Position numbers and translations under genes: made by a program. DNA of 49,030 nt, the filler included, from Jimgerdemannia flammicorona (lineage: Eukaryota): NCBI GenBank assembly GCA_003990765.1. It is 2 parts of 2 records of this genome, joined end to end, with 100 filler letters (N's around TTAATTAATTAA, not from the genome) between each part and the next. Parts side by side here need not be neighbours in the genome. Positions count along the whole stretch, not along the records: positions 1 to 24,466 come from RBNJ01000970.1; 1 more part is not named here. The stretch is one strand, 5' to 3'. The notes below the pieces were generated by a model, which searched no databases, was not told the DNA's origin, and worked only from the letters and a program-made list of their open reading frames with translations. Positions 1 through 36,789 of this stretch are shown here, in pieces. Each line of letters begins with the position of its first letter. Position 1 is the first letter of the stretch.

Positions 1-76
<76 letters not shown>

Positions 77-7688: not shown

Positions 7689-10600
7689 AGATGTCTTCAA
7701 AGAAAATAAGGTTAGTGAGCATTTCTATAAGTGTTCATATATATCAATTAGCAGGATGTTATTATCAATAATGATGATATCATATTCAGTAGCAGTGACA
7801 AGGAGATCAGGAGCTCTCCAATCTATGATATTTTCCTCTACAAAGTAGGAGATAAAGGTGAAATCTTGAGGGGGTCTGATCTGGATACTGAGGCCTTAGA
7901 ATACTGAGATTAATCCTTATAGGAATTGATCTGGATTGTCCTGGAGGATGGAATTCTAGAACTCTTCTACCTTATTAATTTTGAGAGTAAAGGTGGATTG
8001 GGCTTCTGTGGCCACCATAGCTTCTAGTGCATCCATACAATAGGCTGATAATTTCTTTAAATCTGAGACTCTGGTATAATCCAAGTTGGGAATTGACCAA
8101 GATACATATCTGAAGATCAGATGGATCTTTTTGGCTATCCTCAATTTATATATATTCATAGAGGTATTATCTTATATCTCTTGGAGGCTGGCCTGAGAGA
8201 ATTTCTGGTAGAGAGGGTTTCCTATTTCATTTTTCTACCATATCAAGAGACATTTGGTAGCAGTAGTGATCCTTGTCTCCATTTCATAGTGGTAGAGAGT
8301 AAAGTGGTAAGAGTTACTATTATCTAGATTAAGGCTAGGAATTCTTCTGATACCAGTCCTCATGACTCTCCTGATGTCTTAGAATATCCTTTCTTGAACT
8401 GAGAGGTCTTGGTAGTTCCTATACCTTGAGGGTTGGTGAGTGGTAGACTTTTTGTTTATAGTGAGTCTTTAGAACTATTTTTGTGAGTCTTGTTTGAGTT
8501 ACTATTGCTGCAGTTTCTTAGTTCTTCTTTTATATTTCTTGAGATATCTATCTTATAGTCATTATGACTTATGGTTTGTCATCATTGCTCATCTTGTAGC
8601 CTGGTTGAGTTATGCCATATGATCTTCTTGTACTTCAATCTGATGTCTTATAAGGAAAGGCTATCTCTTGTAATGATGTCACTATTCTGAGAACACTATT
8701 ATATCTTTCTTCTAAATAAGGATCTTCTCTTGAACATTCTTATTCATTGATCCAGACTGAAAAATTTTCTGATCCTATAACCTCTGGCAGGGGGTTGAAA
8801 AGTGGTGTTTATGGGCTGGCAACTTCTTTATATATTTTGATATAATAGTGAAGGATAGCTCCCTTCATATAGAGCAAGGGTCTGATTCTGATCTTGACCA
8901 ATCAGTTGACTGTTCAGACTCTTCTGGCTTTGAAAGTATCATGGATGAGTAGTTGCTAGTGCCATATCTCTTAGAGAATAGTCCAGACAGATTGTCTGCC
9001 AGTCATAGGATATACTGTTATAATTTACAGACTAGAACCTTGTAGGCAGTCATTATGTTTTACTTCTCTTATATAGGTTCATGGTACTTCTTGAGTCTGT
9101 TCTTATATACCATAGTAGGCAGTATAGTTTCTGAGAGTTTTCTAAGTTAGAAGGTAGTTCTCTTGATATCTTGTACATAGAATAGTCCTTTCTATTTGGG
9201 CTCCAGTTTTCATACCTATGAGGCTTCTACTATATTTCGATATAATAGAACCTTTTCTCTGATTTGAATGAGTTCTAGGGTCTTGTGATTCTTTTTCACA
9301 TTCTTTCTTATTAGTGATTATGACTTGATGATGTAATCTTCTGTCTTCTTTCTAATTTGGTGTAGTCTCTGGATTTCTGAGTCAATCTGTTACCAAGTTA
9401 GGTCTAGATTCATAGCTGAGATTCCATCAGAATCATCTTCTCTGAAGAGTAGTTCTTTTGGAGTAAAGTGTATACTCTGTAACCATATGTCTCATAGAAC
9501 AGAGAGAACAGTTGAGAGATAGTTATCCCAATTCTCATATGTATCTGAGATCTTAGTCAGGATATTCTTAAGAGTCTTATTTGTTCTTTCTATCTGTCTA
9601 TTTTCTTGAGAGTGATATATAGTAGTCTTGATATGCTGAATCTTATATTTCTGATATATTATCTTATGGAATCTGTTGACAAATTCTGTACTATAGTTGG
9701 TGGTGATTTGTCTTGATGTCTTATAGTGGCAGATAATTTCTCAATACAGGAAGCTATAATAGAGAGAGGATTGACTTCTTGTACATAATACTCCTGCTTC
9801 TCTATTTGATAAAGAGATCTATAATAACTATAATGTAGTGGTTTCCTGATAGGGTTACTGATAGAGGTCCAATGATATCCATTGCAATATGGTAGAAGGA
9901 GATAGGTTTAATTCTTGATAACCTAGATATCTGATCTTACTGATCTTATTTCTGTTTTTGATACTTGTTATACTCTTTGACAAATTGGTACAGGTCTTCT
10001 TCCATCTTAGGCCATTATATAGCTCTTCTTGTCTTGGCATATATATTGGTTCCTTCTAAGTATTCTTGTTCATATACTTCCTTCATCATTACTTTATACT
10101 TCTCATAATTGGGTATAATGAGCTTTCCTCCTTTTCTGAGTATGGTGTTGTCTAGTTTGAATTGTTTCTAAGTCTGGTGGATGATAGTGATAGTCCAGAG
10201 TTTGGGGTGGTTGGGTATCTTTCACTGCCTAAGATAGCTAATTAATCTATAGTATAGCTCTATATTTATATTAAATAGTCTTGATGGAGGTGTTTTGAGA
10301 TATCCTTGAAAGTACATCAGCATTGGTATTGGTTCTTCCTGAGCAGTGTTTGAAAGTACAGTTATACTCTTGCAGTCTGTAGATTCATCTAGTATATATT
10401 TCTTTGGGATTTAGAGTGTGGAATAGCCAGATGAGAGCAAAATGATCTGTTTGAATAGTGAAGTATTTTTCAGCTAGATAGTAGTGGAACTTATCTACTG
10501 CCCAGACTACTGCTAAGCATTCAAGCTTGTATGACTTATAGTTCTGTTCTACTTCATAGGTATCTTAGCTTACATAGAAGATGACATAGTTATGTCCATC

Positions 10601-11669
10601 TTTCTTCTGAGCTAGTACTACTCTAAGTTCTATAGTACTTGTATCTGTCTATATGATGAACTCTAGGTTCCAATCTGGTCTTCTGAGAATGGGTGCTTGG
10701 GTCAACTTGGTCTTGAGTTCATTAAAGATTTCTTAATGTTCTTTAGTCTATTTGAACTTAATCTTCTTCTTCAGTAGCTCATAGATAGGTGCTGTAATAT
10801 TGGAGTATCTTTTGATAAATCTTCTATAGTAGAAGGCCAGTCTAAGGAAGGCATAGACTTCTATAGTTGTTCTGGATCTTGGGTAGGCTATAATAGCCTC
10901 AATCATTATGAGATCTGTATGAATTCCTGATATATCCTAGATAGACAATTTCTTAAGATGTAAACTTACACTTCTTGGGCTTAATATATCATCAATATAG
11001 ATAAAGGGTTATTTTTCAACTTCATTGCTGAAGACTCTATTCATTATTTACTAAAAACTTGCTGGAGTATTACATATTCCAAATAGTATTTATAAGTAGA
11101 CATAGGTGGTGTCAGGTATGATGAAGGCTGATTTAACACTAGTATCTTGAGTGAGACAAATCTGATAGAAGCCTGAGAATAGATCTAAAGTAGTATAGTA
11201 TTTGACTTAGGTAAAGATTTCTTGAATATTTGATAAGAGCTATCTATCCTTCTTAGTGATTGTATTGAGCTTTCTGTAATCAATCCAGAGTCTTAGAGTA
11301 AACTCTCCAGACTTGCTTCTTTTCTTTGGGTAAGAACAATGGGTAAAATCTAGGACTGTTGCTTAATAATACTAGCTTCTTTTATTTCTTTAAGTTCTGC
11401 TTGCAGTCATTCTCTGTAGATAGGTGGTATGGGTCTGGCATTCTGGTAGATGGGCTTAGTATCACTAGTGTCAACTTTATGATAATACTTGGGTTTTTAG
11501 TTTTGGATATCTCTGAAGTCTGTAGTAAGTACTCCTTTATTCTAGTGTAGAATCTTGAGAAGTTGTTCTTTTAGGAAAAAGTTTTCTCTAATGATATATA
11601 TGTACTTATTCTGGTCCTTGTCTTTCTTATACTTGAGTTTGGTAATCTTAGTAGTAGTATAAGCTCCTC

Positions 11670-12085
11670 TTCCAGTAGATCCAAAGTCTTGTTTTCCTCT
11701 CTTAGTCTTAATGAGTTCAATGACTTCAGTGATCTTAGGCTTCTTAAGTTTATGGATCAGCATCTGGCCAATCCTGTCATACTTCTTGACTTTGAATAAA
11801 GTGGTGGGGTTGTGATTCCAGACTATAAGGAAGATCTCACAGTGTAATTAGGGTCAATAACTCCTCCTTCAACTGAGATTTCACTCTTGGCCAGACTGCT
11901 CCTGGTCTTGATAATTCCAGTATGGTTTTCTAGTAACTTGACTAAAATTTCAGTTCCAAGTAGAGTGGTGGTCTGTAGTTCAAGGATAACATCTTAGATA
12001 CTGGTAAGGTCTACATATTTCTATAACTCCTATAGTCTTATATCCTGGAATCTTAACTTTGGAGTGAAACTTCTTAATCTTGAAA
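11670..12085 (-). pseudogene. dUTPase domain of the old gypsy element
   Basis: Trimeric dUTPase motifs are readable despite frameshifts: DLTS, KTRSSLAK, GGVIDPNYT, DRIGQML, RGKQDFGSTG. Confidence 0.9.
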
Positions 12086-14318
12086 ATAATGTCTGGTTCT
12101 TATTCCTCCTCATCATCACTATCAGCTTGAAGCTCTGGGGGCTGGTCCTCTTCTTTGGCTTTCTTTTTGCTTCAGCTACTTCTTACTTATATTTTTGTTG
12201 ATGGATTTTTCTAACTTCACTGGTATAGGATCAGCAGTTATTTAGGTGTTTGGAGCAGTATATTCTAGCACCATAGAGGCATCTTCCTTGAGGGGCATAG
12301 CCATTGATGATCTTGTTGTATCACTGCTTATCTGTGAGCTTGGTTATTTGCTCTTGTTCTTATACATCAATTGCATGAAGACTTCTGTATCCTCTTCATC
12401 TCCTTCTTTTATATATAGTAGTACTCCCTTTTTTTTTTTTTTAATGGATCTAGTAGTACTCCTTTGTAGATATTGATAGAGACTCATACCTTTCTTCCTC
12501 TATAGTTGATCTGTATCTTCTGGACATTGAGGTCAATGATAGCTTTGGTCTTGTAAAGCCATTAGTTATCAATGAGGATATCATAGTTAGTAGTACTTAT
12601 AATGATCACATCTACTGAGATAGTAGCTCCTTTGATCTTAATGGAGACTTCTCAGATCTTGCCTAAGAGGGTAGCTCATATACCATCTACTGTGACATAG
12701 ACCATTTTGGTGAATTCTTCAATATTTTAGCCTAGGCAGTCAATTGTCTTCTTGCTTATAAGATATCCTCCAGCACTGGTATCAATAATAGTATCAAAGA
12801 TATAATCTACAATCTGACATTGGGTATAGACTGAGGTCTTGTACTGATCTTCAGATTCTTTACCTAAGTCTTCTTGTTCATCTTCTTATTCATTGTGAGC
12901 TTTTATGATCTTGTACTCTTGGTTCTTAACAGTGATTACAAGTTCTGCTCTCAACTGCTGTCTATAGGTGGGGACTTCTGCTAGTTGTTCAAAAGTAATA
13001 TTGACCTTGAGGTTCTTATAGATACATATCATACTAATGGATCTTGGTCTTGTGCAGCTTCTGTTCTTTCTTGCTTTCACCTGCTCCTAGAGTAGTGCCT
13101 TTAATAATTTGGCAGACAGCTTCATCTTACTCTATATCTTGATCAATCTCCTCAGATTGGGTCTTACTTTGAATGGTGATGATTGGGGTCTTTTTTGATC
13201 TTCCAACTAACTTGCTATTGCTCTTCTTATCATAGAGCTTGGACTGGATTTAGGTATCTTAGTAACAGGATAGAATTTGGACTCCTCATAGTATTCTTCA
13301 TCATCAGTATCACTAATCTCCTTAATGACTACTGTATTGGTTTATTCTCTAGTTCTGGTAGCATTACTTAGTTGAGCTCTATATATTGTTTCAGTCATGC
13401 AATTATTTGTATAGTGGCCTTCTTCTTCACATTTAAAGTATATGATAGTATATTCTTCTATAGTAGCTGCAAACCTCTGTACTGGTCTCCTGTTGGTACT
13501 TTGTACTTCTCTAATAATATTACCAAGATTTGTAGACATCTTGGCAAACTACTGGGTGAGTTCCTCTACTGGGTCAGCTTTGGCCATCTTTAGGGTAGAT
13601 AGAGATAATTATTTGTTGAGAGCTATAATAGGTATGATACTGGTTGACTTTATTGACTTTGTCTTGATACTGGTTATTCTTTTTATTGAGTGTTCAGTGG
13701 GGGGTCTAGCAGTTCAATATCTCTGTGCAAAGATCACTTTTTGGTCAAGGGTCAGAGTAGCTGAGATCAACTGGATTGTTAGAGTGATTTCATAGTGAAC
13801 TCCTTTTAGAAAGATTGAATTAGCTATCTGTTCCTTAAGGGTATCATAGCCAGCCAAGACAATCTGGTAGCAGATTGAGTATAGAATGAGTTAGGGTCTT
13901 CATTGAGTCTTTGGCAGATAGTGTTGAGTAGATCTTTGAGAGCTTACTTAATCTTTTCAGTATAGTATATAGTTCTGGGGAAGTTCTTCATATTGGTAAG
14001 TTGGCTATACTATTGTTGGCAATAGTGGCTATATTGAACTTATCTCTAGCAAGTCCTCTGAGGCTGATAGATAGAAGGGCCAATTGTGCTTCAATGTTGA
14101 GAGCTCATATAGCAGCAAATTGTTCAAAGTCTTCAATGAAGGTCAAGATTAACTCTTCAGTAGTAAATCTATAGAATGTAGGGGAAAGTATTTATATCTT
14201 ATCTTGAATTCTTACAGAGGGTGACTATTGTAGTCAGGGTAGTTATTGTAGTGGTTGTTCATTGTTCAGCTTGAAAGTGAGAGATTCTAATAATATTACC
14301 AGTCAATAGGCACCAAGT

Positions 14319-14650
14319 TGTAACATAGCAGATATATATCTTAGTAAGTTGGTAGAATTCTGGATTTTGTGTGAAGGGGGAAAGAGTATGTAAAGAAGAC
14401 TTGTTTTTTTTGGAATTGAACTAACTTTATTTACTCTAAAATACTGGGTTATTTATATAAGTTTGTATACTAATTTTGCTATTAAATATACAGCTAAGTA
14501 TCAAGTCTTTTCATGTAAAATTCCTAGTAGAATTACTTTCATATCTCAGGTAGAATCTCATGTAAAATCCTATTTAAAATTTATGAAAGTAATAAGAGTT
14601 TCACTAATAATGTTTTAGATATAGTATCTGCAGTAAAGGTAATTTCTACA
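14319..14650 (-). repeat. 5' LTR of the old gypsy element
   Basis: Ends in ..GTTACA next to the PBS. Contains TATATAAATAACCCAG..AGAGTAAATAAA (TATA plus polyA signal), the same core seen at 17480-17525 and 18070-18115. Confidence 0.7.
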
Positions 14651-15289
14651 CTATACTAAAACAGAAATCAGATTCTGATACTATGATCAAATGTCTATTC
14701 TCCTAATTCTTATTTTTATTTCATACTATATATTATAATAATTATCAATTAAACCTAGAAACAATTTGAAATCAATAAAGAAATACTAAGAAAGACAAAC
14801 TACTAGTTATATCAGAATATAAGAAGGAATGGGTGGTGGGATTGGTATATAAGCTTGGTCATGTGAGGGGAATAAATACCTATGATAAATATTAGAAATA
14901 AAAACAAGATTAGTAAAACCAGATACCAGAATCAGTAAATATAGAACTAGTACTATTTACCTGTATTAAAATAGACATAATTAGTCTACTACCCTTAATA
15001 TTGACTAGCAGCTGATGTGCTGTTGTTGTTGTGGGCTCCTTTATGGGATATATGTGGGTAAGACTCCTCAGGGGGGTTGATATATGGTTAATTGCTAATT
15101 TTTCCTATAGAGAAATTACTTATTGATTCAAGACCTCAAAGTGAGTAACAATAGAAAGAGGAACAAAATTTGTGAAGTGGGTACAGTGTATTATATAAAG
15201 AATAGATGGGTATATTAATAAAGAAAGAAGTCCAAGTGACTATAAAAAAAAAACAAAAAACAAAAAACAAAATTTATAAATAAGCTCTT

Positions 15290-16720
15290 TAAGATTCTAT
15301 TTAAAAAGTATAAGATCCAGTACATTCAAACTACAGCTTATTATTTATAAGGAAATGGATAGACTGAAAGGACCAATAAGATACTTAAGAATATTATTAC
15401 TGAGATCTAAAATATATAACTATAAAAATTGGAACAACTATCTGCTAATGGTATTATCTGCTCTCAGGAATATATAATCACAAAGCACCCATTTCACTTC
15501 TTGAGAATTGTGGTTTGGAGAAGAAAGTTCTGAAGAAACTTTATTATTCAATAGAGATATGGTATAAAAATACATAGATGCTAAGATATAGAGATTGTAT
15601 CAAATAAGAAGAAGGTTAAAGATTATATAATTAAGATATAGGTATTGTAAGAGAATAATGTTAAGAAGATCTATAAGTCTCTGGAGATTATTAAGATAGG
15701 AGACAAAGTTCTAATATATATATTAGAATATAGTAGAAGCTTCATAGTCATAAAAACTAGGGCCTAAGTAGAAAGAATATTATATTGTACAAAATATAAT
15801 AGAAATAATCTTTTGATAATAAAAACTATCAGTCAAATCATCCCATCACTATTTACTAAAACTGACTTAAGAAGTACTATAGCTAACTAATGAAGTATCA
15901 ATCTGACCCTTAAGATCACAAGTACTATCCAGTAAGCTATAAAAAGATAATAGTATTTCACTAAGCCACTAGTTATAGTGGAATTCTTTAATAATATTTA
16001 AAGTATTGTACAGACTCATCTATTACAAATTTCATACTTTAGAGCCTATCAATATTATGCTGAGTTTCAAAAGTACTTCAAGTTAAAGAAATTGCTAAAT
16101 GAGAAAGAAATGACTAAAGAAGAATAAATTGCATAGTACTAGATATCTTATATCCAGATCACTATAACTAAGTAGGTCTACAAATTATTCAAGAATAATG
16201 AGCAAGACCTAGCCCATTTCCAAGAAGTAGTCTCAAGAGATTTCTAATAGATAAAGAGATATTATTAGAAGAATAATTATATTGAATAAGAATATATAAT
16301 TAGTTAAAGTATGAGAGTTTGAATAGATAATTTAGAAATAAAATCACTTATGTAGAAAAAATTATAATAATTTATCTAAATTAGGAATAACAATTAGGAG
16401 ATAAATATTTAATTATAGTATCTAAGTCTAATTCTCAATATAGTATAGTATTATAGTTTAGCAGTTACTCAATCTCTCAATTATATGATTTATATAATTA
16501 TATAAAAAGTATAGATTAATAAATCTCTCAGCTTTACAGATTTAATAGATATACTGAACTCTTAACTATACAAAATAACTTACAGAAAAAGAAGTCTTGA
16601 CTTAGTTATCATATAGCTAGCAAACTTATATAAATATCTCTAGTATCTAAATAAATAAATATCAGATTGGAATAGTTCAAGCAAAGAGACAAGAGTAACT
16701 CTGTAGGTAGATATACTTTA
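15290..16720 (+). mobile_element. Very decayed Ty3/gypsy 3' remnant (integrase C-terminus, probable 3' LTR ~16415-16720)
   Basis: KYKIQYIQTTAYY..GNG*TERTNKILKNII..NWNNYL..LSALR..STHFT..ELWFG (~15305-15520) matches the gypsy integrase core end. The downstream repeat matches 5255-5449. Confidence 0.78.
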
Positions 16721-17311
16721 AACTTACTCACTCCTGCACCTGAGGACTCTAAGAAGTCAAAAAAGATCAAGTATTTAAAATAAAGAAATTCAACACACTT
16801 CTGTTAGTATATATCTACTATATTATAAAAAATATTTATAGTTACTACTTATTGATCTACTTGAGATAATTAAAATTTCTCTTTATATAATTTTATACTT
16901 CAACTACTAAGGCTTTAGTTCTTATTTTATATAAAGTAGCTAACTTTTTATAAAGATCTCTTAATTATTTTTATCTGATTTAATATTATAATAAATTGAT
17001 ATACTGATAGAATTAATATATTATAGATAATCAAGATGACTATCAGCTCTAAGTTCTATATTCTTATAAGAAAGTACTAAGGTTCAATTGTCTATTGCAG
17101 TAGAGTAGTCTAAGTATTACTTTTGAGTTCTTGTGCTAAGAGAGATACTATACTTATATTTAAAGTTCAGACTCAGAATCATTAATAAGTTAGATCTGAG
17201 GATTCTTGATATTAATATTGCTTTATTCTTATATTAGAAAAAGCAGAGCTGAGATTATAATATAATCATTATAGAGAATATTTTTATCAATTTGAATATA
17301 TGTATAACCAA

Positions 17312-17700
17312 TATAATATGGCAGATGCCTAATCTTAGAAGTATGGCAGATTTCTGTATCTTGAAAACTTGACTTGTTCTGACTCTTGCAGAGTTCTCAG
17401 GATACAGGGAAGTGAGTTTGAAGTGTATCTGCAGACTTACTAGTTCTTTTGCTTTTTCATTACTTTAAACTATTTTGATCTGAGGTTTATTTACTCTAAG
17501 ATACTGGATTATTTATATAAGTTTACTAGCTATAAGGTGGCTAAGTTATGACTATGTTATGAGTTACTTTTCATAAGTATTAATCCTTAATATCTGTTAA
17601 ATATTTGATGATTATCAAAACTTTAACATCTGTGAATTCTTTATATTTGGAAAATGTTTAATATTTATAAAAACTTTAATATTTGTAAAATAACTACTAT
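17312..17700 (-). repeat. Solo/relic LTR related to the gypsy LTRs
   Basis: Minus strand has TATATAAATAATCCAG..AGAGTAAATAAACCTCAG, matching TATAAATTACCCCAG..AGAGTGAATAAAACCTCAG at 18075-18112. It ends GCCATATTATA-TTGG, like GCATATTACA-TTTGG at 19312-19326. The upper boundary is uncertain. Confidence 0.65.
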
Positions 17701-17739
17701 TTATAAGACTATACTGTATTGGGAATTGGATTTAGATAC

Positions 17740-19321
17740 TGTAACAGACCAAAACGTACCACCTGAATTATAACTTAGCCAGATGACACGAACAATTAGC
17801 ATACTTACTCAGCATGATGTGACTTCCAGTATATCATAGTTACTCATGCCTGCCATACTTATAATTAGCCAAGACACCAGATCAGGATTGTTTACTTATA
17901 TCCTGTGGACATACTTATATCCTGCGAACACACTCATGTCCTGCAGACACACTTATGTCCTGCAGACACACTTATGTCCTGTGGACACACCTGTATCCAG
18001 AGGACACACCCAAATATTACCGAAGATAGCAAATCTATAGTTAGCCACATAGTAACCAGATAGCAACCAACTTGTATAAATTACCCCAGAGACGAGAGTG
18101 AATAAAACCTCAGTCCGAAAAGTCTGAAATTGAAGCAAAAGACAAGTCTGCCTACCAAACTTCGAGAGGAACTCTACAGCCACTGTTAGGAGATTGTGAG
18201 CTTATTTCCCCTTTCCACTCCAGTCTACTTTCTGATATAAAGAATGAGTTCATTTTTGGTTCACTTGCCAGATAAGCCTGAAGATTTGCCACCTAAGTTC
18301 AAGGAGAACTTCGCTGCCTTTGAGAATTCTTATTATTGGTTCACTTGCCAGATAATCCTGAAGAATCCCAGTTTTCTGCCAAGTTCAAGGAAGAACTTCA
18401 CCACATTCCCAGAGAAAGCCGCCTTGCCCAAGTCAGTTTCTGACACAACTTCGCAGAGATCTGTTCGCGCAAACAAAGCCAGTCTTTGACGCAACTTTGT
18501 CAAGAGACCCTTTCCAAGCTGTCATCCCATTTCCCAGTTAAAGACTGCCATTTTTGAGTTATCCACCATATTCCCAGTTGAAGCCAAGTCCGCACTATCT
18601 GAGTTAATTCCCAGTTAAGCTGCCGTTTTCAAGAAGTCCACTGATTCAGGAAGAATCTGTGTCATCTGCCATTTTCAAGTTATCCGCATTCCCAGTTGAA
18701 GCCGCTGATTCAAGAAGAATCTGTGCCATTGTATTCCCAGAAAAGCCACCAAATCAGGAAGAAACTCAAGTTATTGTTCCCAGAAAAGCCATCTGAGTTA
18801 TCCATTATTCCCAGTGAGCCTGTTATGGAAGAATCCACACCATACAATTCCCAGTGAGCCGAATCGAGTTATCTGCCAAATTATCAGAACATCTGCATAA
18901 GGAACCCATCACGCTATACAGAGATCGTCGCACTACACAAGATCATCACAAAGAAATTGCATAAGGAGAACCGCTAAATTGCCAGACTATCATGCATAAG
19001 GAGATTATCATACAATACAGAAATTACCCATTACTCAAGAAGGAAACCGCTCGTGCTATACACAAATTCTGCCATTCCCAGTTGACCCAGGAAGGAAATC
19101 TATTCACACAAATCACCGCTACACCCAGGGAACCATCCCAATTAGGAAATCAACATACAAATCACTCGCAGATATCCAGCTTTGACTATTATACCGCTAA
19201 ATACCAAGGACCTCAGGAATCTTAGAACATTTTGTTGCTTTTTGACAAAGTAACTGGGGGCTCAAGTCAAACTATCAACCCCCAACCTTGTAATTTGCCT
19301 CCATTGAGCCGGCATATTACA
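17740..19321 (+). repeat. 5' LTR (~1582 bp) of the young gypsy element
   Basis: Starts TGTAAC and ends ATTACA directly before the PBS. TATA (18075) and AATAAA (18101) are present. The 3' LTR is not in the window to confirm. Confidence 0.75.
17894..18007 (+). repeat. Tandem array, 6 x 19 bp (consensus ACTTATGTCCTGCAGACAC)
   Basis: Direct reading of six diverged units just upstream of the LTR TATA box. Confidence 0.9.
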
Positions 19322-19355: not shown

Positions 19356-22300
19356 ATGTGACTTTTCAGCTCACAAGAACCCACAGTCAAACTGGATACA
19401 TTTGATACAACACCAACCTCTGCCACTACAGAAGAACTAGTCATCACTAGCATTTAGACAGGAAGAGAAGTAATCACCTCAAGACTTGCCAACTAACCAG
19501 CATCAGAAGGATCCCAACCAGAAGCAGGAGGCAGTATAGCCTGAAATCCTCAACCAGATCAACCAGATCAACCAGACAATACAGGCAGCCCTGCCGGAGA
19601 TTTTGGAGAACTTGCATAAGAACTAGAAGATTTTATTACCTGGACCCAACACTTTACAGCCAGACACCCCACACCAGTCCCACCAATCTCACCAATAGAG
19701 CTCCTACCACAACCTCTTGCAGAACCAGAAGTAGCTCCTACAAGGATACCTAGACCTACTCCACCCCGCCCAAGAACCAGAACACCATCTTCAAGATACC
19801 CAAGCACCCCTGTCTCTAGTGATAGTTCAGAAAGTGAATCAGAATCAGAATCAGAACTTGAACCGGAATCAGAAGAAAGTGACGACGAAATGGCCACCTC
19901 ATTGCCAACCTTTGCAGGATATCCAGAGGAGGACCCCAGAGAATTCCTTGATGGAATTGAAGAAATTGCAGTCTTGAGAAACCTCTCAGATGAAAGAAAA
20001 ATCACTATCTACAAAGCCCAGCTTAGAGAACCAGCTAGAGGAATTTTCCACCAAACAGCAAACAACTCAGATTTGGAACTGGCAAGACAGATAAAAGCAG
20101 CATTCTCTGATGAGCTAGAATATGAGGCCATGGTCCACTGGCTCATCGAAAAGTATGCAGGAAATGAAACCCGCCACAAGGCTCAGGAATCCATCATAGA
20201 AATGAAGATGAATCTTGGAGAATCACCCAGGGCCTTCTTCATAAGAATCTAGAAGAGAATGCATTCTGCCGGATTCAATGCCACCAACCAAGACATCATA
20301 GGTCCAATGACCTTCATGAATGGAATTCCTCCAAATATTGCCCAGCATGTCCACACTCTAGGCATCAGAAGGTCTGAAGAGCAAGTAGATGCAGCCCAAG
20401 GATTCTTTGATGTTAGGCAAGGAACTACCTGGAGTGATCATGACAAGAAGGAAGACAAGGAAGATATCCTGGTCAAAGCCCTGCAAGGACTCCTTCAAGG
20501 ACAAGAAGGATCCAAAGAAAGAAGGCCAGCTAAGGAAGAAAAGAAGGACAGAAGTGAAATTCAAGACCTCAGCTCTAAGTTAGATCAATTGGTTGGCCAG
20601 ATTGAAAAACTCACTACAAGCGAAAATCGGAGCTACCAAGACAACAAAGGATACCCACCACAGAGGAGCCAAGGTTATCCACCAAGAGATAATAGGAATT
20701 ACCAGCAAGAAGAAAGAAGATACCCTGCCTGAGACAGAGCCCAAGTCCAATGCTTCCACTGTGGACAATTTGGACACTATGCCACTGAATGTGACAACAA
20801 AAGAAGTGACTGAAGGGACTCAGAACCACCAAACTGAAGGAATGACACCCAGTACAAGAAGACTAAAGCCCATCCTGTTGAAGATTTCGAGGAAGCAAGC
20901 AACAGTGAAGACTACAGTGACCTAGACTTGTATCCTACCAAGGTTACTATCTGAAAGACAGTCTACCCAGCAGAAAAAAGAAAGAGACCTGTGGGAAGAC
21001 CATCCAGGAACATCAGCAGAAGAATCATGCAAGAAGAAGATGAAGAACATGAGGAGGAACAAGTTGAAACACCTCTCTGAACCCCCTCACCTTTTGCGCC
21101 CAAGACAAATGAGTTGCTATCAGAAGATGAAGAAATGGAACAAGAAGAATGGGAACCTGCTGCTCCAAAGTCTAAGAAGAAGTACACCCTGAAGACCATG
21201 CCTAGGGATATTTACAATGAAGCCTGGCAGAAGATTCTAGAAGCCAAGATGGAAGTCCCTCTCCTGCAGTTCTTGCAATTGATACCAGCTGGAGTCTGAA
21301 ACAAATTGCTGAGAACCACCAGGTCTAGCACTGGCCGAGTTCCAATTCTACAGCAAGAACCAGCCTCCATCCCTGTCCAAGCAGCTGAAAGACATGTCAG
21401 CACCTACTTACATGGAGACATTGGAGGACAAAAAGCAAAAATCCTCATAGATACAGGAGCAGCTATCTGTGTCATTGCCAAACGATTCTTGGACACCCTC
21501 CAATGGCCCATTGATGGACCATCCAACCTCAGCATCATAGTAGCAGATGGAGCCTGAACTCAACCCCTTGGAGAAGTACAAAATATCACTATCTCCCTCA
21601 GACACATTCTGTTCTCTATCTCCAAAGCTGTTGTCACTGAAGCTGTCACCTATGATATGATTCTTGATACCAACTGGATGAAGGAAATGAATGCAGTTGT
21701 TGATATTGACCAACAAGTACTCAAGTTTGACTACTGAGGCAAGAAGTATAGAGTTAAGGTGACCAGCTATGAGCAATCAAAAAAGAAGAAGAAGGTCACT
21801 ATTCAAGAAGAATATGCCAGCAGTGAGGAGTCTACTACAGAAGAGGAAGAAGAATCCGAAGATGGAAATGATCCCAGACTCAATCCTCGAATTAACCTGG
21901 TGGATGACAGACAAGAAGACAATGTGTGGGCTAAGAACACCATCCCCATCACCATTGGAGCCATTGCAGGAGAAGCCAAAGGATGCCTCACATGCCTCAA
22001 GAGACATAAGTGTCCCGAGCACTCCTCCAAGGTCATGGGAACAAGGAAATCGCCTGGTGCAGCCTGCCGAGAATGCAGAAGAAAGAAGAAGAAATGCAGA
22101 CATGTTCCAGAAACACCTGCGACCAAAGCTGCAGAAATACAAGCAATTTGGGGTCAAGAATCATCTGAGGAAGAAGAAACTTCTGACCAAGAAGTTCCTG
22201 AACAAGAAGCACCTGATGAAGAAGAAGTCCCTGAACTCATCTCCTGGGATGACCCTCACTGGATACCACCTGAAGACAATGACCCCTGGAATACAGAGGA

Positions 22301-23891
22301 AGGACCCAGTACCATCACCATTATCCCTAAGAAAGAAACCCACCAAGAGAAAGCTTTCCGGCTAGGAAGATGTTTACATCAAATGGTCTTCCACTCTTCC
22401 TGAGACTACTGCTATCAGTGTCATCTGTTGGATCAACAAGAAAGACAGAGACCCCAGAGACCAGAACCCCCAACTACTCTTGCACAGTCCACCACCTTTC
22501 AAGAGGTCACTACAAGGTTACAAAGTCGATTTAGGGGACAAGGCTTCTTTACCCGGACAGAAATATACCCCTTATCTACCCTTCCTCCAACCTATGACCA
22601 AGATGGGTACCAATTCCTCAGACAACAAGAGATAAATAGCCGGGAACTTCATTTCCGAGCAATGGGATATTGTAACCATGAGAGACACCCTGATTACCGA
22701 GACTGCAGACATCAAAAGATTCACCTCAGTCATGATGTTGTAGTGCACACTTTGAAGAAAGGAGATAACCAAAGCCAGATCTGAAAAAGTCAGATTCGAA
22801 AAAGCCAGACCAAGAAGCCCGGAAAAAGAATTCTCAAGATCTACGATTTGGGAGAAGATATCCTAGCTCTCATCAGACATATAACCCGCCAAGGATGGGC
22901 AGAAGATGCCACCAACTTCATGGAAGCCCTTGACCCTACAGGAAGGAGGGGAATCAATTACCTCTGAGACCCCTCTACTGGAGCCAGATGGCCACACCTC
23001 AACCTTAGAGCTTGGAGGCTTTCCACCAGTGGAGCTTCAGCCTTAGGAAAGCCTGAACTCAGCAAGGATATTGCCCAGTATGCCCTGCTGCACCCCAAGG
23101 CCAAACCCCCAACCAAAGCTCACCCAGAGGACGTAGGATATGATCTTCACAGCCTAGAGGATGAATCTATCAAGTCTGGAAAAACCTTCATAGTCAGAAC
23201 CGGATTAGCCATGCAGCCACCTCAATGAGCCTATATTCAACTGACCTCAAGGTCCAGTCTTGCCAGACAAGCAATAACTGTAGAAGGAGGAACCATTGAC
23301 CCTGGATATACAGGAGAAATCAAGGTTATTCTATACAACAGTAGTGCAGAATGGCACCGAATTATTAGAGGACAGAAGATCGCCCAAGCAGTCTTCATGA
23401 AGGTCAAGACCCCACAGTTACAGGAAGTCTCTGAACTAACTGAAGGAACAAGACAAGCCAAGGGATTTGGAAGTTCAGACAGAAAAGAGGTATATCTCCT
23501 TCAAGTCAACCACCTCAAGAGGAATGTTCCCCAGCAAGTATACTGGCAACCAGTCAGACTGCACAAGAATCTCATCCTGGAGCCTGGAGAACAAACTACT
23601 TTCGAAATCTTTGCACCACCCGACCCCAGAAACCTTTTCTTTGAACCTAAGGAAGATATCCCACACCTAGACATAGAGGGACACACATTCCCTAACAAGA
23701 TGAATCCAGTACACTCCTGAGCAACCAACCAAAGTTGGGAGACCATCATCCTGCCAAAAGGAACTATCATAGGACATCTGGTGCCTTTCCTCAACTGAAC
23801 TCATAGGGAAGTTTATGAACTAAACCTATTGGGAAATGGCAAAAGGTCCCAGAAGAAAGGAAAGGCCCCTCTGCGACCCAGGAGACAGTGA
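19356..23891 (+). pseudogene. ORF1: Gag - CCHC - aspartic protease - Cys/His insert - dUTPase - dUTPase-like spacer (nonsense-disrupted, no frameshifts)
   Basis: ATG 19356 and ORF pieces at 19890, 20259, 21114, 21306, 21759, 22428 and 23397 all lie in one frame. Motifs: knuckle CFHCGQFGHYATEC (20751-20792), ILIDTGAA protease (~21440-21465). Confidence 0.9.
23070..23480 (+). pseudogene. dUTPase domain of the young gypsy element
   Basis: All five trimeric dUTPase motifs: VGYDL, SRSSLA, GTIDPGYTG, KIAQ, RQAKGFGSS. One TGA at ~23226. Confidence 0.95.
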
Positions 23892-24466
23892 AGCCTTCCA
23901 CCAACATTGGAGAAGAATTGACACCTCAACAACAACAACAATTAGTAGAACTTCTCAACAAATATCAAGATATCTTCACTACCGATTATGGCAACCTGCC
24001 ATACAATCCATCATATCACCACAGCATAAATACAGGAAGTGTAACATCCATCTGGCAGAAACCCTATAGAATACCCCATCACTTGAAAACATTCGAAAAG
24101 GAGCACATCCAAGAACTCTTAGACAATGGAGTCATCCGACCCTCTACCATCCCCTGGGCCAGCCCTATACTTATTGTACCAAAGAAAGGAGGATGGAGAC
24201 TCTGTGTGGATTACAGAAAACTCAACTCAGTCACTGAAAAGGATACTTATCCTTTGCCCAGGATCGATGACCTTTTGGACCAGTTACAAGATGCCAGATA
24301 CTTCAGCAGTATGGACCTCTTTGCAGGATTCCATGAGATCTCCATGGACCCCAAAGACATTCAAAAGACAGCCTTTCTTGCTCTAGGAAAACTGTTTGAA
24401 TACCTCTGAATGCCCTTTGGACTCTGCAATGCACCCCCCACCTTCCAGAGGATGATGAATTCAGTC
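23831..24466 (+). pseudogene. Reverse transcriptase (pol, -1 frame relative to ORF1), truncated by the gap
   Basis: ORF 23888-24409 has the gypsy RT N-terminal motifs and continues past a TGA as MPFGLCNAPPTFQRMMNSV. Confidence 0.93.
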
Positions 24467-24566
24467 NNNNNNNNNNNNNNNNNNNNNNNNNNNNNNNNNN
24501 NNNNNNNNNNTTAATTAATTAANNNNNNNNNNNNNNNNNNNNNNNNNNNNNNNNNNNNNNNNNNNN
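24467..24566. other. Artificial contig-joining linker (44 N, TTAATTAATTAA, 44 N)
   Basis: Symmetric 100-nt spacer whose 12-mer has stops in all six frames. It is not biological. Confidence 0.95.
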
Positions 24567-26796: not shown

Positions 26797-27885
26797 CTAT
26801 GAACTCCACTGAGACTGCCATGCGTCTATACAATCCTCCGCGCACCATAACCATACTTTTTCAATGTGGTACCACGCACGCTCAAACGTGGGATTCTGCA
26901 ACGCGAGAATTACGTCTTCGCGTGAGCCCTTGTGGTACGGGAATCTGAGCCTTTTGAGCCCCTCGCTCGCGCCGACTACCAGCCGGACGAAGCGGAGTGG
27001 GACCTGGGTGCTGCGTAAGTGGAGCGTTCTGAGATGACGCAGGCTGACAGCCGTCTCATCAGGAATGTCGATCGGGATTTCGCCGTATGGGAGCGCGCCG
27101 ACCTCGAGGTAGAGGCGTAGATGGGCGAGGTTCGGGCAGTTGAAGAGGAGGTACTTGAGGAGGTCGGAGAGGACCGGGGTGTGGTTAATATTGAGACCAT
27201 AGCTGCCTAGAAGGAGGGAGTCGAGGTTTTGCCAGGATTGCGTTATGTTTATTACGTGGGGTAGGACTTCATTGCCGGTGATGTGCGCCTTGGTGATGTG
27301 GGGGCACTGCCGAAAGGCTCTTGTTGCGTCTTCGTCGAACTTCACGTCGTGTAAACGAACGATCCGCAAGTTGTCTCTGAGCGCCTTGATGAGTGGGTGG
27401 ACGCACACGCCCTCCAGCGTGAGTTGGGAGACGTTCTGGCAAAACGGCAGGATACGCGAGACGGTGCCCTCGTAGTTCAGGAATTTCTTGAAGGCAAGCT
27501 CTCTAGAGCCCTGAGCTAGTATCTCCATTAGTTCCCATGAACTCGACGAGAAGCATACACGAATTTTGTCAAAGGTCGTCAACCCTAGCCGGCGCGTCTC
27601 CTGCACGAGCTTCCGGAATCGGTCTACTTCCTCCAACTTCGGTTGCCGGAACGTCAGAGCCCGCTCGAGGCTCGAGAAGGAGATGGCGGCAGTGGCGAAA
27701 GGGTACCACGATTTGCAAACAAGGGAGCAAGACAGCAGGTCTAGTTGGAGGTCGCCGTACGTTGAGGAGACAGGCATGAGGGGTTTGAAGAATTCATTTA
27801 GAATTTCAGGTGGAATGTGGGCGGGTGGGGTCGCTTCTGTTGGATTCGGGAGGAAACCATCGTTTGAATGTGTTGAGGGAGACAT
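26797..27885 (-). CDS. F-box protein with C-terminal leucine-rich (RNI-like) repeats
   Basis: Long uninterrupted ORF. F-box signature IPPEILNEFFK..DLLSCSLVCKSWY; LRR-like CQNVSQLTL, CPHITKAHI, CPNLAHLRL, LRHLRTLHL. The first ATG (MSPSTH) at 27885 is taken as the start. Confidence 0.88.
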   Translation of the reverse strand: MSPSTHSNDGFLPNPTEATPPAHIPPEILNEFFKPLMPVSSTYGDLQLDLLSCSLVCKSWYPFATAAISFSSLERALTFRQPKLEEVDRFRKLVQETRRLGLTTFDKIRVCFSSSSWELMEILAQGSRELAFKKFLNYEGTVSRILPFCQNVSQLTLEGVCVHPLIKALRDNLRIVRLHDVKFDEDATRAFRQCPHITKAHITGNEVLPHVINITQSWQNLDSLLLGSYGLNINHTPVLSDLLKYLLFNCPNLAHLRLYLEVGALPYGEIPIDIPDETAVSLRHLRTLHLRSTQVPLRFVRLVVGASEGLKRLRFPYHKGSREDVILALQNPTFERAWYHIEKVWLWCAEDCIDAWQSQWSS

Positions 27886-28189
27886 GACAGCGCTGTCTTG
27901 TGTCAGTTGACCCGCACTCCAATGAATAGTCAAAGTGCGCAGTAGTGGGTGGTGACGAAACCTGAATATCCCCTTCTCCGGCTCTCGCTCTACCCTTCGT
28001 ATTGGAGTTGGATAGTATATTGAGATTGAAGTCACAGCACGACGAAAATAAATTCTGAAGAGTTCATTTTGTGAATATTTCTCAAAGAGAAAACAAGCAC
28101 CAATGCAAAAATTAATGTTTGAGATGCATGGCCAAGTTTATACAGCTCTTCGCCACGCACTGTCAAAAAAGATGGCTACTGCGCAAGTC

Positions 28190-29576: not shown

Positions 29577-30281
29577 ATGTCTCAAGAAATCGAATGTGGG
29601 CCATTCAACGGGCCTTTTAATTCCGGTCTAGCTTACCTTCATAACAATACACTACCCCATTTCAGGTATCTCCGCTGCCCTTATCCAACCTGTCCAAACA
29701 CTTTCAGCAGAATGGACATCCTTCAAGGCCACCTCAAACTGGAAACTCACGACAGCCTGCCACCAAATGGCGTCCTGATGGACCTGGTACCAAACGACAT
29801 ATTGATCGATGGAAGCACATCCGACCAAACATCCATTTTCCAATCTCATGGTGACCCACAGCCTCATGAAGATATACACACCCCCTTCGATGTCCTCCAA
29901 GCGTTCACCAACACAGAAATCCTTACCGACGTATACGTAGATGGTGACGTCATCGACCAAGCAACGTTCAATCCAGGGCCGACTTTTCCGTATCTCAGTC
30001 AACATAGCTCCGCTTTTCATGCCGATGGTGCGCCATACCCGCCGACCACGACCATCGCCCTTACACCTGATCCTGCGCAGCACAAACAGTGTTCTGACTG
30101 CTTTAAGAGGAAAAAGCGGTGTCACCTTCACATCACCAACAAGGCCGCTAAGCGGACTCCACCAGGAAAGGCATGCATCTGGTGCCGAATTGACAAGAAG
30201 CGATGTCAGGGCAACCCTTGTACTCGTTGCCTTTATCACGGCAGGTTTTGTTTCGGGAGCCGTACCTATCCTACTGCATGA
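29577..30281 (+). CDS. Small zinc-finger protein: C2H2 + CxxCx6CxxH + Zn(II)2Cys6-like cluster (copy Z1, intact)
   Basis: 234-aa ORF with CPYPTC-x12-H-x5-H, CSDCFKRKKRCHLH and CIWCRIDKKRCQGNPCTRCLYHGRFC. TATAAAA at 29529; AATAAA run at ~30376. Confidence 0.85.
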   Translation: MSQEIECGPFNGPFNSGLAYLHNNTLPHFRYLRCPYPTCPNTFSRMDILQGHLKLETHDSLPPNGVLMDLVPNDILIDGSTSDQTSIFQSHGDPQPHEDIHTPFDVLQAFTNTEILTDVYVDGDVIDQATFNPGPTFPYLSQHSSAFHADGAPYPPTTTIALTPDPAQHKQCSDCFKRKKRCHLHITNKAAKRTPPGKACIWCRIDKKRCQGNPCTRCLYHGRFCFGSRTYPTA

Positions 30282-31487: not shown

Positions 31488-32143
31488 ATGTCTCAAGAAA
31501 TTGGCTGTGGGCTTAATATGCCTTTTGATTCCAGCCTAGCTCATCTCCCTCACAACAACCGACTACCTCATTCCATCCTACCACCCCGGCATCTCCGCTA
31601 CCATTTTTCAACCTGTCCAAACACCTTCAGCAGAATGGACATACTTCAAGTTGAAAATTCACGGCAGCCTGCCACCGAATGGCGTCCTGACGATCGATGA
31701 AAGCACATCCGATCACACACTTATCTTATAGTGACCCACAGCCTCATGAAGATATACACACCTCCTTCGATGTCCTCCCAACACAGAATCCTTACCGACG
31801 TATACGTAGATGGTGATGTCATCGATCAAACAGTGTTCAATCCAGGGCCGACTTTTCCGTATCCCAGTCAACATATCTCCTCCGCTTTTCACGCCGACGG
31901 TGCGCCATACCCGCCGACCACGACCATGACCGCCGCCCTCACACCCGATCCTGCGCAGCACAAACAGTGTTCCAACTGCTTTAAGAAGAAAAAGCGGTGT
32001 CGCCTTCACATCGCCAACAAGGCCGCTAACCGGACTCCACCTGGAAAGGCATGCACCTAGAATTGACAAGAGACAACCCTTGTACTCGTTGCCTTTATCA
32101 CGGCAGATTTTGTTTCGGGAGTGGTACCTATCCTACTGCATGA
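31488..32143 (+). pseudogene. Zinc-finger family copy Z2 (frameshifts, deletions, stop in cluster)
   Basis: MSQEIGC start and YPTA* end are conserved. The ORF is split, with a stop after GKACT. Confidence 0.85.
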
Positions 32144-36563: not shown

Positions 36564-36789
36564 TCGCTAGAGCTCAGTGAGGTTCGGACAAGGGGTTGTG
36601 GTAATATAGAATTGTCATGCTTCCACTTGCGTGGCGCCATTCCACTAAGTAATGATAGTATGTTCGAGCTAATGAACTGGTTATTTATTTACTCTTAATA
36701 AAATAAACTGATACAACAAGGAGATTTGAGCGACGTTCACTAATCTGTAATGGAGACTGTTGTTGAGGCCAACTAGTTGTGCCGAGCCT

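Follow-up and report, generated by a model that had tools for sequence, protein, structure and literature searches.

The window, i.e. the whole analysed stretch of 49,030 nucleotides, consists of two contigs joined by an artificial linker at positions 24467–24566 (N44 + TTAATTAATTAA + N44). The caveat of the earlier note on this DNA, that closeness of the two loci compared below means nothing because such a linker separates them, is therefore correct. The first contig carries a decayed Ty3/gypsy polyprotein in the order gag CCHC, protease (PR), X region, dUTPase and reverse transcriptase (RT), and ends inside the RT at position 24466. A zinc module is encoded within this polyprotein. The second contig carries a cluster of small genes, called Z1–Z6. 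The features of the element are the following (L001 is an intact relative on a metagenome contig, and P0003 is a distant sister polyprotein):

19620–20732, plus strand: gag-like portion of the polyprotein (in a tblastn search, the L001 ORF aligns over 19362–22301)
20748–20798, plus strand: gag CCHC zinc knuckle, CFHCGQFGHYATEC (Pfam zf-CCHC, 21.2 bits, cut-off 20.8)
21414–21680, plus strand: retropepsin-type aspartic protease, LIDTGAA (Pfam gag-asp_proteas, 30.9 bits, cut-off 28.2; Asp_protease_2, 27.6 bits)
21969–22160, plus strand: lineage-specific insertion of about 64 residues relative to P0003 (pairwise and three-way alignments; segment also in L001)
21984–22103, plus strand: zinc module core (translation, 8-sequence alignment, shuffles, host-only HMM)
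22161–22967, plus strand: conserved region X between the module and the dUTPase (alignment A1; shared with P0003)
23100–23477, plus strand: dUTPase domain (Pfam PF00692, 91.6 bits, E 4.6e-26)
23819–24409, plus strand: start of the reverse transcriptase, in another frame (Pfam RVT_1, 40.3 bits; cut by the contig end at 24466)

All four of the zf-CCHC, gag-asp_proteas, dUTPase and RVT_1 matches exceed the curated Pfam cut-offs. The zinc knuckle was also found in L001 and P0003, homology to the L001 ORF begins at about 19362, and the retropepsin D-T/S-G active site is present as LIDTGAA. The dUTPase is located between the protease and the RT. About 450 residues separate it from the protease, and they hold the six-cysteine module and region X, which contains the motifs AFRLGRC-x-H...C-x2-C and GYC...C and has no match in Pfam.

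The window copy is a pseudogene. It is truncated in the RT, changes frame before it, and contains 13 in-frame TGA codons and one TAG (at 20250). No LTRs, RNase H or integrase were seen in this copy, whose 3′ end lies off the contig. Upstream of the element, only tandem repeats, at 17894–18009, were seen. The use of TGA as a sense codon in the source organism was considered and rejected: L001 has no TGA in 986 codons, the element is depleted in CpG (observed/expected 0.16, range 0.16–0.21), four of the seven TGA codons with an aligned L001 codon face arginine codons, and the TGA at 23226 reads GGA in all aligned contigs. The host of the element is probably an Endogonales-like fungus of the Mucoromycota.

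The module core has the form C-x2-C-x5-C-x2-H-x14-C-x2-C-x6-C-x-H, and the translation of 21984–22103 (plus strand) is CLTCLKRHKCPEHSSKVMGTRKSPGAACRECRRKKKKCRH. Translation thus confirmed one of the two peptides compared in the earlier note, and it confirmed the other as well, which is encoded by Z1 at 30090–30206 on the plus strand (CSDCFKRKKRCHLHITNKAAKRTPPGKACIWCRIDKKRC). The inserted segment sits in the acidic linker after the protease, and its right-hand boundary is fuzzy, from about 22100 to 22160. In the alignment, the linker around the module is of low complexity and varies in length between elements.

The spacing in Zn(II)2Cys6 domains (PF00172) is C-x2-C-x6-C-x5-12-C-x2-C-x6-8-C, and the cysteines of the element (C-x2-C-x5-C-x23-C-x2-C-x6-C) are spaced differently. 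The module has no third triad and its first triad is spaced by x5, not x6; therefore, it cannot be a canonical Zn2Cys6 domain. Pfam Zn_clus (gathering cut-off 21 bits) gave no match to the module at E ≤ 1 or to the L001 ORF at E ≤ 0.1, and the module alone had 0 matches in the PDB at E ≤ 10, so that all solved Zn2Cys6 domains miss it. Judged by its sequence, the module is not an ordinary Zn2Cys6 domain. When it is compared with Gal4, Put3, Leu3 and Pho7, its second triad, A-C-x2-C-R-x4-K-C, fits the first, DNA-contacting half of the domain, whereas the second half (C-x2-C-x6-8-C) is missing. In addition, a further C-x2-C-x5-C-x2-H precedes the second triad in the element, and 23 residues separate the two triads. 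Zn2Cys6 domains hold two zinc ions by six Cys and bind CGG half-sites. For the module, AF2 models from 8-row alignments had a mean pLDDT of 47.4 (element first) and 53.5 (Z1 first), which is too poor to judge geometry. The best ESM Atlas score of the module was 0.81, a lead only.

On the second contig, we distinguished six module-bearing Z copies:

29577–30281, plus strand: Z1, intact host ORF of 234 aa; a C2H2-like finger, then the module (30090–30206), then a third Cys triad
31692–32371, plus strand: Z2, broken copy with stops in the second triad
33331–34017, plus strand: Z3, intact copy of 228 aa
36790–37473, minus strand: Z4, intact copy of 227 aa
39040–39588, plus strand: Z5, N-terminally shortened, with the last Cys of triad 2 changed to Phe
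42559–43414, minus strand: Z6, broken copy with a stop in triad 1 and a Cys to Tyr change in triad 3

The first cysteine of the module lies at 30090, 31968, 33826 and 39397 on the plus strand and at 36981 on the minus strand; in the sixth copy, also on the minus strand, the second triad starts at 42889. An additional N-terminal Z fragment is found at 40426–40843. Nucleotide identity among the copies is 78–86%, reaching 97% in one inverted pair (Z4/Z5), which agrees with the earlier description of an amplified host family. The ORFs of three of the six copies (Z1, Z3 and Z4) are intact. In the Z copies, the second triad runs into C-x4-C-x2-C-x6-C, resulting in a near-canonical Zn2Cys6 pattern. 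Triads 2–3 of Z1 read C-x2-C-x6-C-x4-C-x2-C-x6-C, with a loop one residue short of that pattern, and against Zn_clus they scored 19.7 bits as a 70-aa piece and 16.3 bits within the whole ORF (cut-off 21 bits). The best ESM Atlas score for Z1 was 0.85, to generic C2H2 clusters, and is likewise a lead only.

Two proteins of Jimgerdemannia flammicorona (Endogonales), RUO96690.1 and RUP13587.1 (the P0008/P0009 pair; hypothetical proteins according to NCBI), are members of the same family, and Z1 matches P0008 in BLASTP with 46.6 bits (E 9e-11). The host proteins are 227–289 aa long and have the layout C-x2-C-x5/6-C-x2-H-x14-(A)C-x2-C-x6-C, with a C2H2 finger upstream at least in Z1 and in one of the two Jimgerdemannia proteins. 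No TE domain was found in P0008 and P0009 with Pfam. Their genes are placed on short contigs of 3.5 and 5.3 kb, and a residual chance remains that they originate from mis-annotated mobile DNA. The family is known here from two sources, the Z cluster and these two genes, and a word-based search with Z1, which needs shared 5-mers, returned no homologue among proteins of 128–410 aa. The analysis defines a small, previously unnamed family in Endogonales-type fungi, which combines a C2H2 finger with an extra half-cluster before a Zn2Cys6-like motif. Fungal factors of the Cmr1/Pig1 type also carry both C2H2 and Zn2Cys6 motifs. As these factors are generally described, the proteins found here pair the two motifs likewise but are much smaller and have an additional half-cluster triad.

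The element shares the module of this family but not its architecture. The upstream C2H2 finger and the third triad are absent from it, and the module is internal to a polyprotein instead of belonging to a small stand-alone protein.

The starting point of the earlier note was the similarity of the element module to that of Z1. A hand count gave its 17 identities with one gap, all six Cys and the His are shared, and the His-to-Cys spacer of 14 residues is seen in both translations. In BLASTP the two align with 22/60 identities (33.5 bits, E 1e-6). When the cysteines were fixed and the non-Cys residues of the element module were shuffled, none of 5000 shuffles had as many non-Cys identities as the real module shares with Z1 (11) or with P0008 (15), and the result was also 0/5000 for Z3 and for P0009. 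An HMM built from host modules only recovered the element module among 1548 six-frame fragments with 33.0 bits (E 4.7e-9) and the L001 module with 22.1 bits (E 1.2e-5), while the best fragment not assigned to the family or to the two TE copies scored 13.2 bits. The shuffled controls, which the earlier note named as a possible refutation, thus fall short of the observed similarity. In a tblastn search of the whole polyprotein against the window, the single match outside TE sequence was the Z3 module (33814–33960, E 4.5e-6).

An exhaustive phmmer search with the element module in 1,835,955,588 representative proteins yielded 5 matches at E ≤ 0.001. P0008 (E 1.7e-5) and P0009 (E 6.5e-5) bear the module and are the sole non-repetitive matches; P0006, P0007 and P0010, which are internally repetitive and do not have the six-Cys pattern, were set aside by judgement. 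The earlier note had allowed for the case that ordinary Zn2Cys6 proteins match equally well. They do not: none was found at E ≤ 0.001 among the 1.84 billion proteins, and Zn_clus and the PDB chains miss the module. In BLASTP, the region of the element aligns with P0008 without a gap (23/52 identities, 55.1 bits, E 8e-14) and with P0009 at 57.0 bits (E 5e-14). The module itself scores 52.8–55.1 bits against the two Jimgerdemannia proteins and 30.8–42.0 bits against the Z copies of the window, and the x5 spacing of triad 1 is common to the element and these two proteins.

Across 8 aligned sequences, including both TE copies, 10 columns are invariant (C8, C11, C17, H20, R28, P31, G32, C35, C38 and R39); an eleventh, A61, falls in an unalignable tail. 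All 8 carry the signature C-x2-C-x5/6-C-x2-H-x14-C-x2-C-x6-C with R-x2-P-G-x-(A)-C, and the element has the layout and the ten columns in common with Z1–Z6, RUO96690.1 and RUP13587.1. When the whole-family profile was searched against the PDB, all matches (9/9) were Zn2Cys6 proteins (PUT3, GAL4, Pho7, LAC9, RSC3, LEU3 and others; E 0.011–0.54), matched through triad 2 onward. A blastn comparison of the two contigs gave homopolymer matches only; therefore, no DNA has recently passed between the element and the Z cluster. At the sequence level, the likeness of the element and host modules is real and beyond chance.

Further evidence comes from relatives of the element. The frame of L001 is open and free of stops over 986 codons, and 613 of 865 aligned residues (71%) are identical to the window copy, with synonymous sites saturated (pS 0.62–0.65). 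The module of L001, GCIKCLHRQKCEEHSSRHVEIRKSPGTTCPECRRKKKRCLH, retains all six Cys and both His. Between the two copies, the module has a pS of 0.65, a pN of 0.22 and a dN/dS of 0.17, and the dN/dS of the protease is 0.06; by hand count, the module is the faster-evolving of the two (63% vs about 85% identity). Two copies that diverged deeply have both retained the module under purifying selection. The module bins are covered by contigs from three soil metagenomes and from a fourth run, labelled 'organism A'. Among these contigs, X3 (record 18) spans 21958–22209 with 16 differences, and no indel or joint inside the module is listed in the related metagenome contigs.

P0003, with 36% identity in alignment A1, lacks the entire module: the pairwise alignment and three MAFFT modes all place a gap there, between IG(A/P)IA at one edge and an acidic stretch leading into (S/A)WDDP at the other. 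Absence of the motif from sister elements, which the earlier note named as an argument against its view, thus applies to the distant sister but not to the close one, L001. A word-based search (needing shared 5-mers) with residues 480–720 of the PR-dUTPase linker found nothing among proteins of 649–2067 aa; given this need for shared words, it is a weak negative, as is the corresponding search with Z1. The alignment-based metagenome scan found L001, a metagenome scan with a single 214-aa ORF found no relative, and neither did a viral-contig scan with alignment A1. In a tree of the module (47 columns), the two TE modules pair with 96/95 support; the attachment of this pair among the host members has 60/66 support and is not resolved.

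We propose, with a probability of roughly 0.7, that a gypsy lineage captured the module once from a host family of C2H2 plus zinc-cluster proteins and retained it. The earlier note had offered two alternatives, and the one in which the element captured a transcription-factor-like module is supported by the clean insertion relative to P0003, by its presence in L001 with the putative metal ligands intact and by the match to a cellular-type family. A lineage of dUTPase-bearing Ty3/gypsy elements would have gained the segment of about 64 residues once, in frame, between the protease and X-dUTPase. Its core is homologous to the 'double-triad' zinc module of the small cellular proteins. Only triads 1–2 would have been taken from the host gene, and possible routes of capture include recombination and a template switch to a co-packaged host mRNA. 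Because the element module scores higher against the Jimgerdemannia proteins, the Z cluster of the window is probably kin of the donor and not the donor itself. Transfer from host to element appears to be quite the most plausible direction. This polarity rests on one distant sister (P0003) and on parsimony, and a deletion in the P0003 lineage would give the same picture.

The other alternative of the earlier note, that the host family took the module from the retrotransposon by domestication or TE-to-host transfer, is disfavoured, even if the module tree leaves the direction unpolarised. The Z and Jimgerdemannia genes would then represent a TE fragment fused to a C2H2 finger. The family does look young and labile, with half of the Z copies intact and dN/dS values of 0.37–0.56 among them, the word-based search found no Z1 homologue in the size range given above, and the Jimgerdemannia genes lie on short contigs. 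We nevertheless regard this origin as unlikely. The second triad of the Z proteins continues to a near-canonical Zn2Cys6 pattern, recognised by Zn_clus (19.7 bits) and by solved Zn2Cys6 proteins, and the element has the first half only, so that, starting from a fragment, the host gene would need to have reconstructed a cellular domain. Moreover, P0003 does not have the segment, no further TE-derived sequence is present in Z1, P0008 or P0009, and the Z contig is not depleted in CpG (observed/expected 0.83 vs 0.16–0.21 in the element).

It is very improbable that the module was acquired independently, or arose de novo, from an ordinary Zn2Cys6 factor and came to resemble Z and P0008 through convergence of Cys/Lys-rich motifs. 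Both sequences are indeed basic and Cys-rich, Cys-Cys pairs give much of the BLAST score, and 33.5 bits between the element and Z1 is by itself modest. However, the shuffles that kept the cysteines fixed never reproduced the likeness to Z1, Z3, P0008 or P0009, and the shared features extend outside the Zn2Cys6 motif to the upstream triad, C-x2-H, the 14-residue spacer and R-x2-PG-x-(A)C. The phmmer, Zn_clus and PDB searches, in which no ordinary Zn2Cys6 protein or chain matched the element module within the thresholds given, also speak against convergence.

As for the function of the captured segment, a basic, zinc-stabilised module for nucleic-acid binding or nuclear import is the likely candidate. 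The six Cys of the module, together with His, would hold two zinc ions. Its basic stretch, C-R-R-K-K-K-K-C, is the counterpart of the half of a Zn2Cys6 domain that comes first and contacts DNA; this stretch would bind nucleic acid and/or act as a nuclear-import signal. The module would do so on behalf of the Gag-PR-X-dUTPase polyprotein or of the cleavage product in which it ends up. We give somewhat less than even odds to such binding or import being its main role.

There is a slim chance that the segment is a neutral passenger, i.e. junk inserted into a variable acidic linker and of no use in the element's life cycle. The low complexity and varying length of this linker, the death of the window copy and the lower conservation of the module compared with the protease would fit such a view. 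On the other hand, synonymous sites between the window copy and L001 are saturated, yet the frame is open, with no change at the six Cys and both His and with a dN/dS of 0.17, and no indel is listed where the related metagenome contigs cover the module. An equally slim chance can be given to the module being a weapon in a conflict between element and host, in which the element stole the DNA-recognition half of Z-type genes. These clustered, fast-turnover genes would then encode sequence-specific binders of element DNA, for which the vertebrate KRAB zinc-finger repressors provide a comparison, and the element module, acting as a decoy or anti-repressor, would vie with them for their binding sites. 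It might instead steer the cDNA or a dUTPase-containing complex to chosen genomic sites. If true, an early-diverging fungus would harbour an element that uses a zinc cluster for targeting or to counter silencing.

PosPlaTy3-5 of Postia placenta is a fungal Ty3/gypsy (Metaviridae) element with a dUTPase between PR and RT, and fungal gypsy lineages acquired the dUTPase as an accessory domain (PMC2864245). The order of gag CCHC, protease, dUTPase and RT is the same as in the excerpted description of that type; unlike it, the element studied here has about 450 residues from PR to dUTPase, with the Cys6 module and a region X without a Pfam family. The excerpt of PMC2864245 on dUTPase-bearing fungal elements contains no mention of a zinc-cluster module. 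Ty3/gypsy elements have gained other accessory domains as well: chromoviruses carry a chromodomain (PMC2864245), and orchid elements an m6A demethylase domain (PMC9289625). To the extent covered by the excerpts of these sources, the present case is the same in that a host-type domain lies in frame in a gypsy polyprotein and is kept across copies, but the module is of a different domain type and sits between PR and dUTPase, neither located C-terminally in the integrase nor forming an enzyme domain of its own.

Full-text literature searches brought up no description of a Zn2Cys6-type module in a gypsy polyprotein; subscription journals and supplements may hold one. The gain of an accessory domain by an LTR retrotransposon is a known phenomenon, and the captured zinc module is a new variant of it. 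Stable gains of host domains by LTR retrotransposons are few: the chromodomain, the dUTPase and the orchid demethylase. Each of these raised the question of how elements tune integration, replication or host control, and the present case adds a transcription-factor-type zinc module to them. Its cellular relative can be traced, its insertion point is bracketed by presence in two diverged copies and absence from a distant sister, and the purifying selection on it can be measured; simple experiments are therefore possible. They may tell whether the peptide binds zinc and DNA, whether it recognises the same sites as the Z-type proteins, and whether it affects the localisation or the insertion sites of the element.

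One copy of a Ty3/gypsy retrotransposon fills the last stretch of the first contig, from about 19362 to 24466, and its polyprotein carries, downstream of the protease and between acidic linkers, a zinc module with the pattern C-x2-C-x5-C-x2-H-x14-C-x2-C-x6-C-x-H. Translation placed the peptide quoted in the earlier note at exactly 21984-22103. Its proposed host counterpart, the module of the zinc-finger copy Z1, was found at 30090-30206, within an intact 234-codon ORF (29577-30281).

Gypsy features of the first contig
19620-23795, frame mod3=0: polyprotein frame, beginning with a gag-like region
in the 19620-23795 frame: CCHC knuckle (Pfam, 21.2 bits)
in the 19620-23795 frame: aspartic protease, LIDTGAA (Pfam, 30.9 bits)
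between protease and dUTPase: linker of about 450 residues without a Pfam family
in the 19620-23795 frame: dUTPase (Pfam, 91.6 bits, E 4.6e-26)
23819-24409, in a different frame from the polyprotein: start of reverse transcriptase (RVT_1, 40.3 bits)
11090-13593, minus strand: second gypsy relic, far more decayed than the 19362-24466 copy
12834-12463, 12011-11659 and 11293-11090, minus strand: its protease, dUTPase and RT matches

The contig end cuts the reverse transcriptase, and neither LTRs nor an integrase were seen; the junction of the two contigs (24467-24566) reads N44-TTAATTAATTAA-N44. Placement of a dUTPase between PR and RT has a precedent among fungal elements of the gypsy type, PosPlaTy3-5 being one example (PMC2864245), and the window's element resembles them in this respect. 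The frame switch between dUTPase and RT (23796-23819) could be a real frameshift boundary, with Gag-PR-X-dUTPase as ORF1, or decay of this copy; the distant sister polyprotein P0003 likewise stops shortly past the dUTPase. Region X, between module and dUTPase, has no Pfam family, and its stretches conserved with P0003 (22340-22440 and 22620-22700) hold Cys/His motifs of their own (AFRLGRC-x-H...C-x2-C and GYC...C...H); possibly this is a zinc-binding domain, so far without a name, that belongs to this clade of gypsy elements. Ahead of gag, a tandem repeat of about 6 copies with a 19/38-bp period (17894-18009) may lie inside the 5′ LTR or leader. The second relic has only about 150 codons between PR and dUTPase, where a Cys-triad scan found no triads.

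We read the window copy as dead, with C-to-T changes at CpG sites, turning CGA into TGA, as the main cause of its erosion. The frame (19620-23796) contains 13 in-frame TGA, one TAG and no TAA, and all 13 stops after 20250 are TGA; the module itself is free of stops. In 19620-22403, seven of nine TGA codons face an aligned codon (four Arg, one Gly, one Asn, one Gln) in L001, a metagenome locus carrying an intact relative; in P0003, Arg stands opposite two TGA, and the TGA at 23226 is GGA in all covering contigs. The observed/expected ratio of CpG is 0.83 across the second contig, 0.16 across the polyprotein ORF and 0.02 across the AT-rich stretch 1-17800. Stops and ratios alike fit with repeats of this genome decaying strongly through C-to-T change directed at CpG. 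A recoded TGA was rejected on the CpG depletion, the opposing Arg codons and the absence of TGA from the 986 codons of L001.

BLASTP of the polyprotein ORF against the Z1 ORF gave 22/60 identities (33.5 bits, E 1e-6), and because six Cys-Cys pairs inflate such scores, four controls were run. With Cys fixed and the remaining residues of the element's module shuffled 5000 times, no shuffle equalled the observed non-Cys identities to Z1 (11), Z3 (11) and two hypothetical proteins, P0008 (15) and P0009 (14); the 9 identities to Z4 were equalled by 12 of 5000, and those for the L001 module by 1 to 26. In tblastn against the window, the whole polyprotein matched itself, the second relic and otherwise only the Z3 module (E 4.5e-6). 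A host-only HMM (Z1, Z3, Z4, Z5, P0008, P0009), applied to the window and L001 in 1548 six-frame fragments, placed the six Z copies at the top, followed by the module of the window's element (33.0 bits, E 4.7e-9) and that of L001 (22.1 bits, E 1.2e-5); the following fragment scored 13.2 bits. Ordinary Zn2Cys6 domains match the element's module less well, Pfam Zn_clus giving no match at E ≤ 1, and the module alone yielded 0 PDB matches at E ≤ 10. Overall, the resemblance reported in the earlier note is confirmed.

An exhaustive phmmer search of 1.84 billion representative proteins with an 84-residue piece returned 5 matches at E ≤ 0.001. P0006, P0007 and P0010 were set aside, being internally repetitive and without the Cys pattern. 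That leaves P0008 (E 1.7e-5) and P0009 (E 6.5e-5), which are hypothetical proteins of Jimgerdemannia flammicorona (Endogonales, Mucoromycota) at NCBI, contain no TE domain in Pfam, and have the element's module layout, including the x5 spacing of the first triad (the Cys-x2-Cys-x5/6-Cys half-cluster). Aligned to the element without a gap, P0008 gave 55.1 bits with 23/52 identities and P0009 gave 57.0 bits; Z1 and P0008 align at 46.6 bits, and P0008 has an upstream C2H2 finger, as in Z1 (Pfam zf-C2H2, E 2e-4, under cut-off).

In the eight-sequence alignment, C8, C11, C17, H20, R28, P31, G32, C35, C38 and R39 are invariant. All nine PDB matches of its profile are Zn2Cys6 proteins, from PUT3 (E 0.011) to LEU3 (0.54), running from the second triad onward, and triads 2-3 of Z1 reach 19.7 bits with Zn_clus, just below the 21-bit cut-off. 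By sequence, the host module is therefore a Zn2Cys6 derivative behind an extra half-cluster; the element has this extra half-cluster but, of the Zn2Cys6 part, just the first half.

Around the Z copies, an inverted duplication of 1.35 kb and 97% identity (36137-37478 and 38911-40251) carries Z4 and Z5, with a poly-Cys run in one frame beside each duplicate (about 36145, minus strand; 40228, plus strand), probably a trinucleotide repeat. Between Z1 and Z2, on the opposite strand, lies a Zn2Cys6-like half motif, CNRCERLKLEC (30789, minus), unmatched by the host-module HMM. A 412-codon ORF (26797-28035, minus) resembles an F-box only weakly, scoring 23.7 bits where the cut-off is 24.3.

The earlier note had proposed either that the element took up a transcription-factor-like module or that the host family derives from the element. 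Given homology, transfer from host to element appears the better reading, with a probability of roughly 0.8. It is favoured because the cellular proteins hold in full a motif of which the element has just a portion, because Z1, P0008 and P0009 have nothing else in common with the polyprotein, because CpG depletion marks the element but not the Z contig, and because P0003 lacks the segment, this single outgroup setting the polarity. P0003 (1179 aa, E 3.1e-99), a gag-PR-X-dUTPase polyprotein, was the best of three proteins found with the PR-to-dUTPase region, and aligns over all of it except a clean gap across the module, after IGPIA, in the pairwise alignment and three MAFFT modes. The module probably came from a paralogue of the x5 type, not from the Z cluster itself, since it scores higher against the Jimgerdemannia proteins (52.8-55.1 bits) than against the Z copies (30.8-42.0). 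No DNA-level similarity between the two contigs was found; their ends (1-82 and 48990-49030) are homopolymer-like and match each other in blastn, as low complexity only.

Retention also supports capture. A metagenome scan with the window-P0003 alignment found one locus, L001, whose open 986-codon frame is identical to the window at 613/865 positions and carries the module at the corresponding position, its six Cys and two His all kept. The motif is thus kept in one sister element but absent from the distant one. Synonymous sites between window and L001 are saturated (pS 0.62 overall); the protease has a dN/dS of 0.06, the acidic linker 0.08, the module 0.17 and the part beyond it 0.13. In the module tree, the two TE modules group (96/95), which suggests a single origin, as do the Z copies (91/92); P0008 and P0009 are placed without resolution. 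The module bins are covered by contigs of three soil metagenome runs and of a fourth run from a coded organism, with no listed indel or joint inside the module, and one contig spans 21958-22209 with 16 differences from the window; as these are contigs, depth is no guide to copy number.

The pattern suggests that six Cys plus His would hold two zinc ions. Gal4-type Zn2Cys6 domains contact DNA through one half, to which the basic stretch C-R-R-K-K-K-K-C may be the counterpart; it also resembles a basic nuclear-import signal. The AF2 models (pLDDT 47.4 and 53.5) are both too poor for use. A role of the module in an arms race or in targeting seems improbable.

Literature searches turned up no account of a gypsy polyprotein with a Zn2Cys6-type module; supplementary element-structure tables might list such modules. 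The main text of a fungal LTR survey (PMC3248453) contains neither 'zinc' nor 'transcription factor' by term search. Gain of accessory domains by LTR retrotransposons is a known phenomenon, and the module described here is a variant of such gain.
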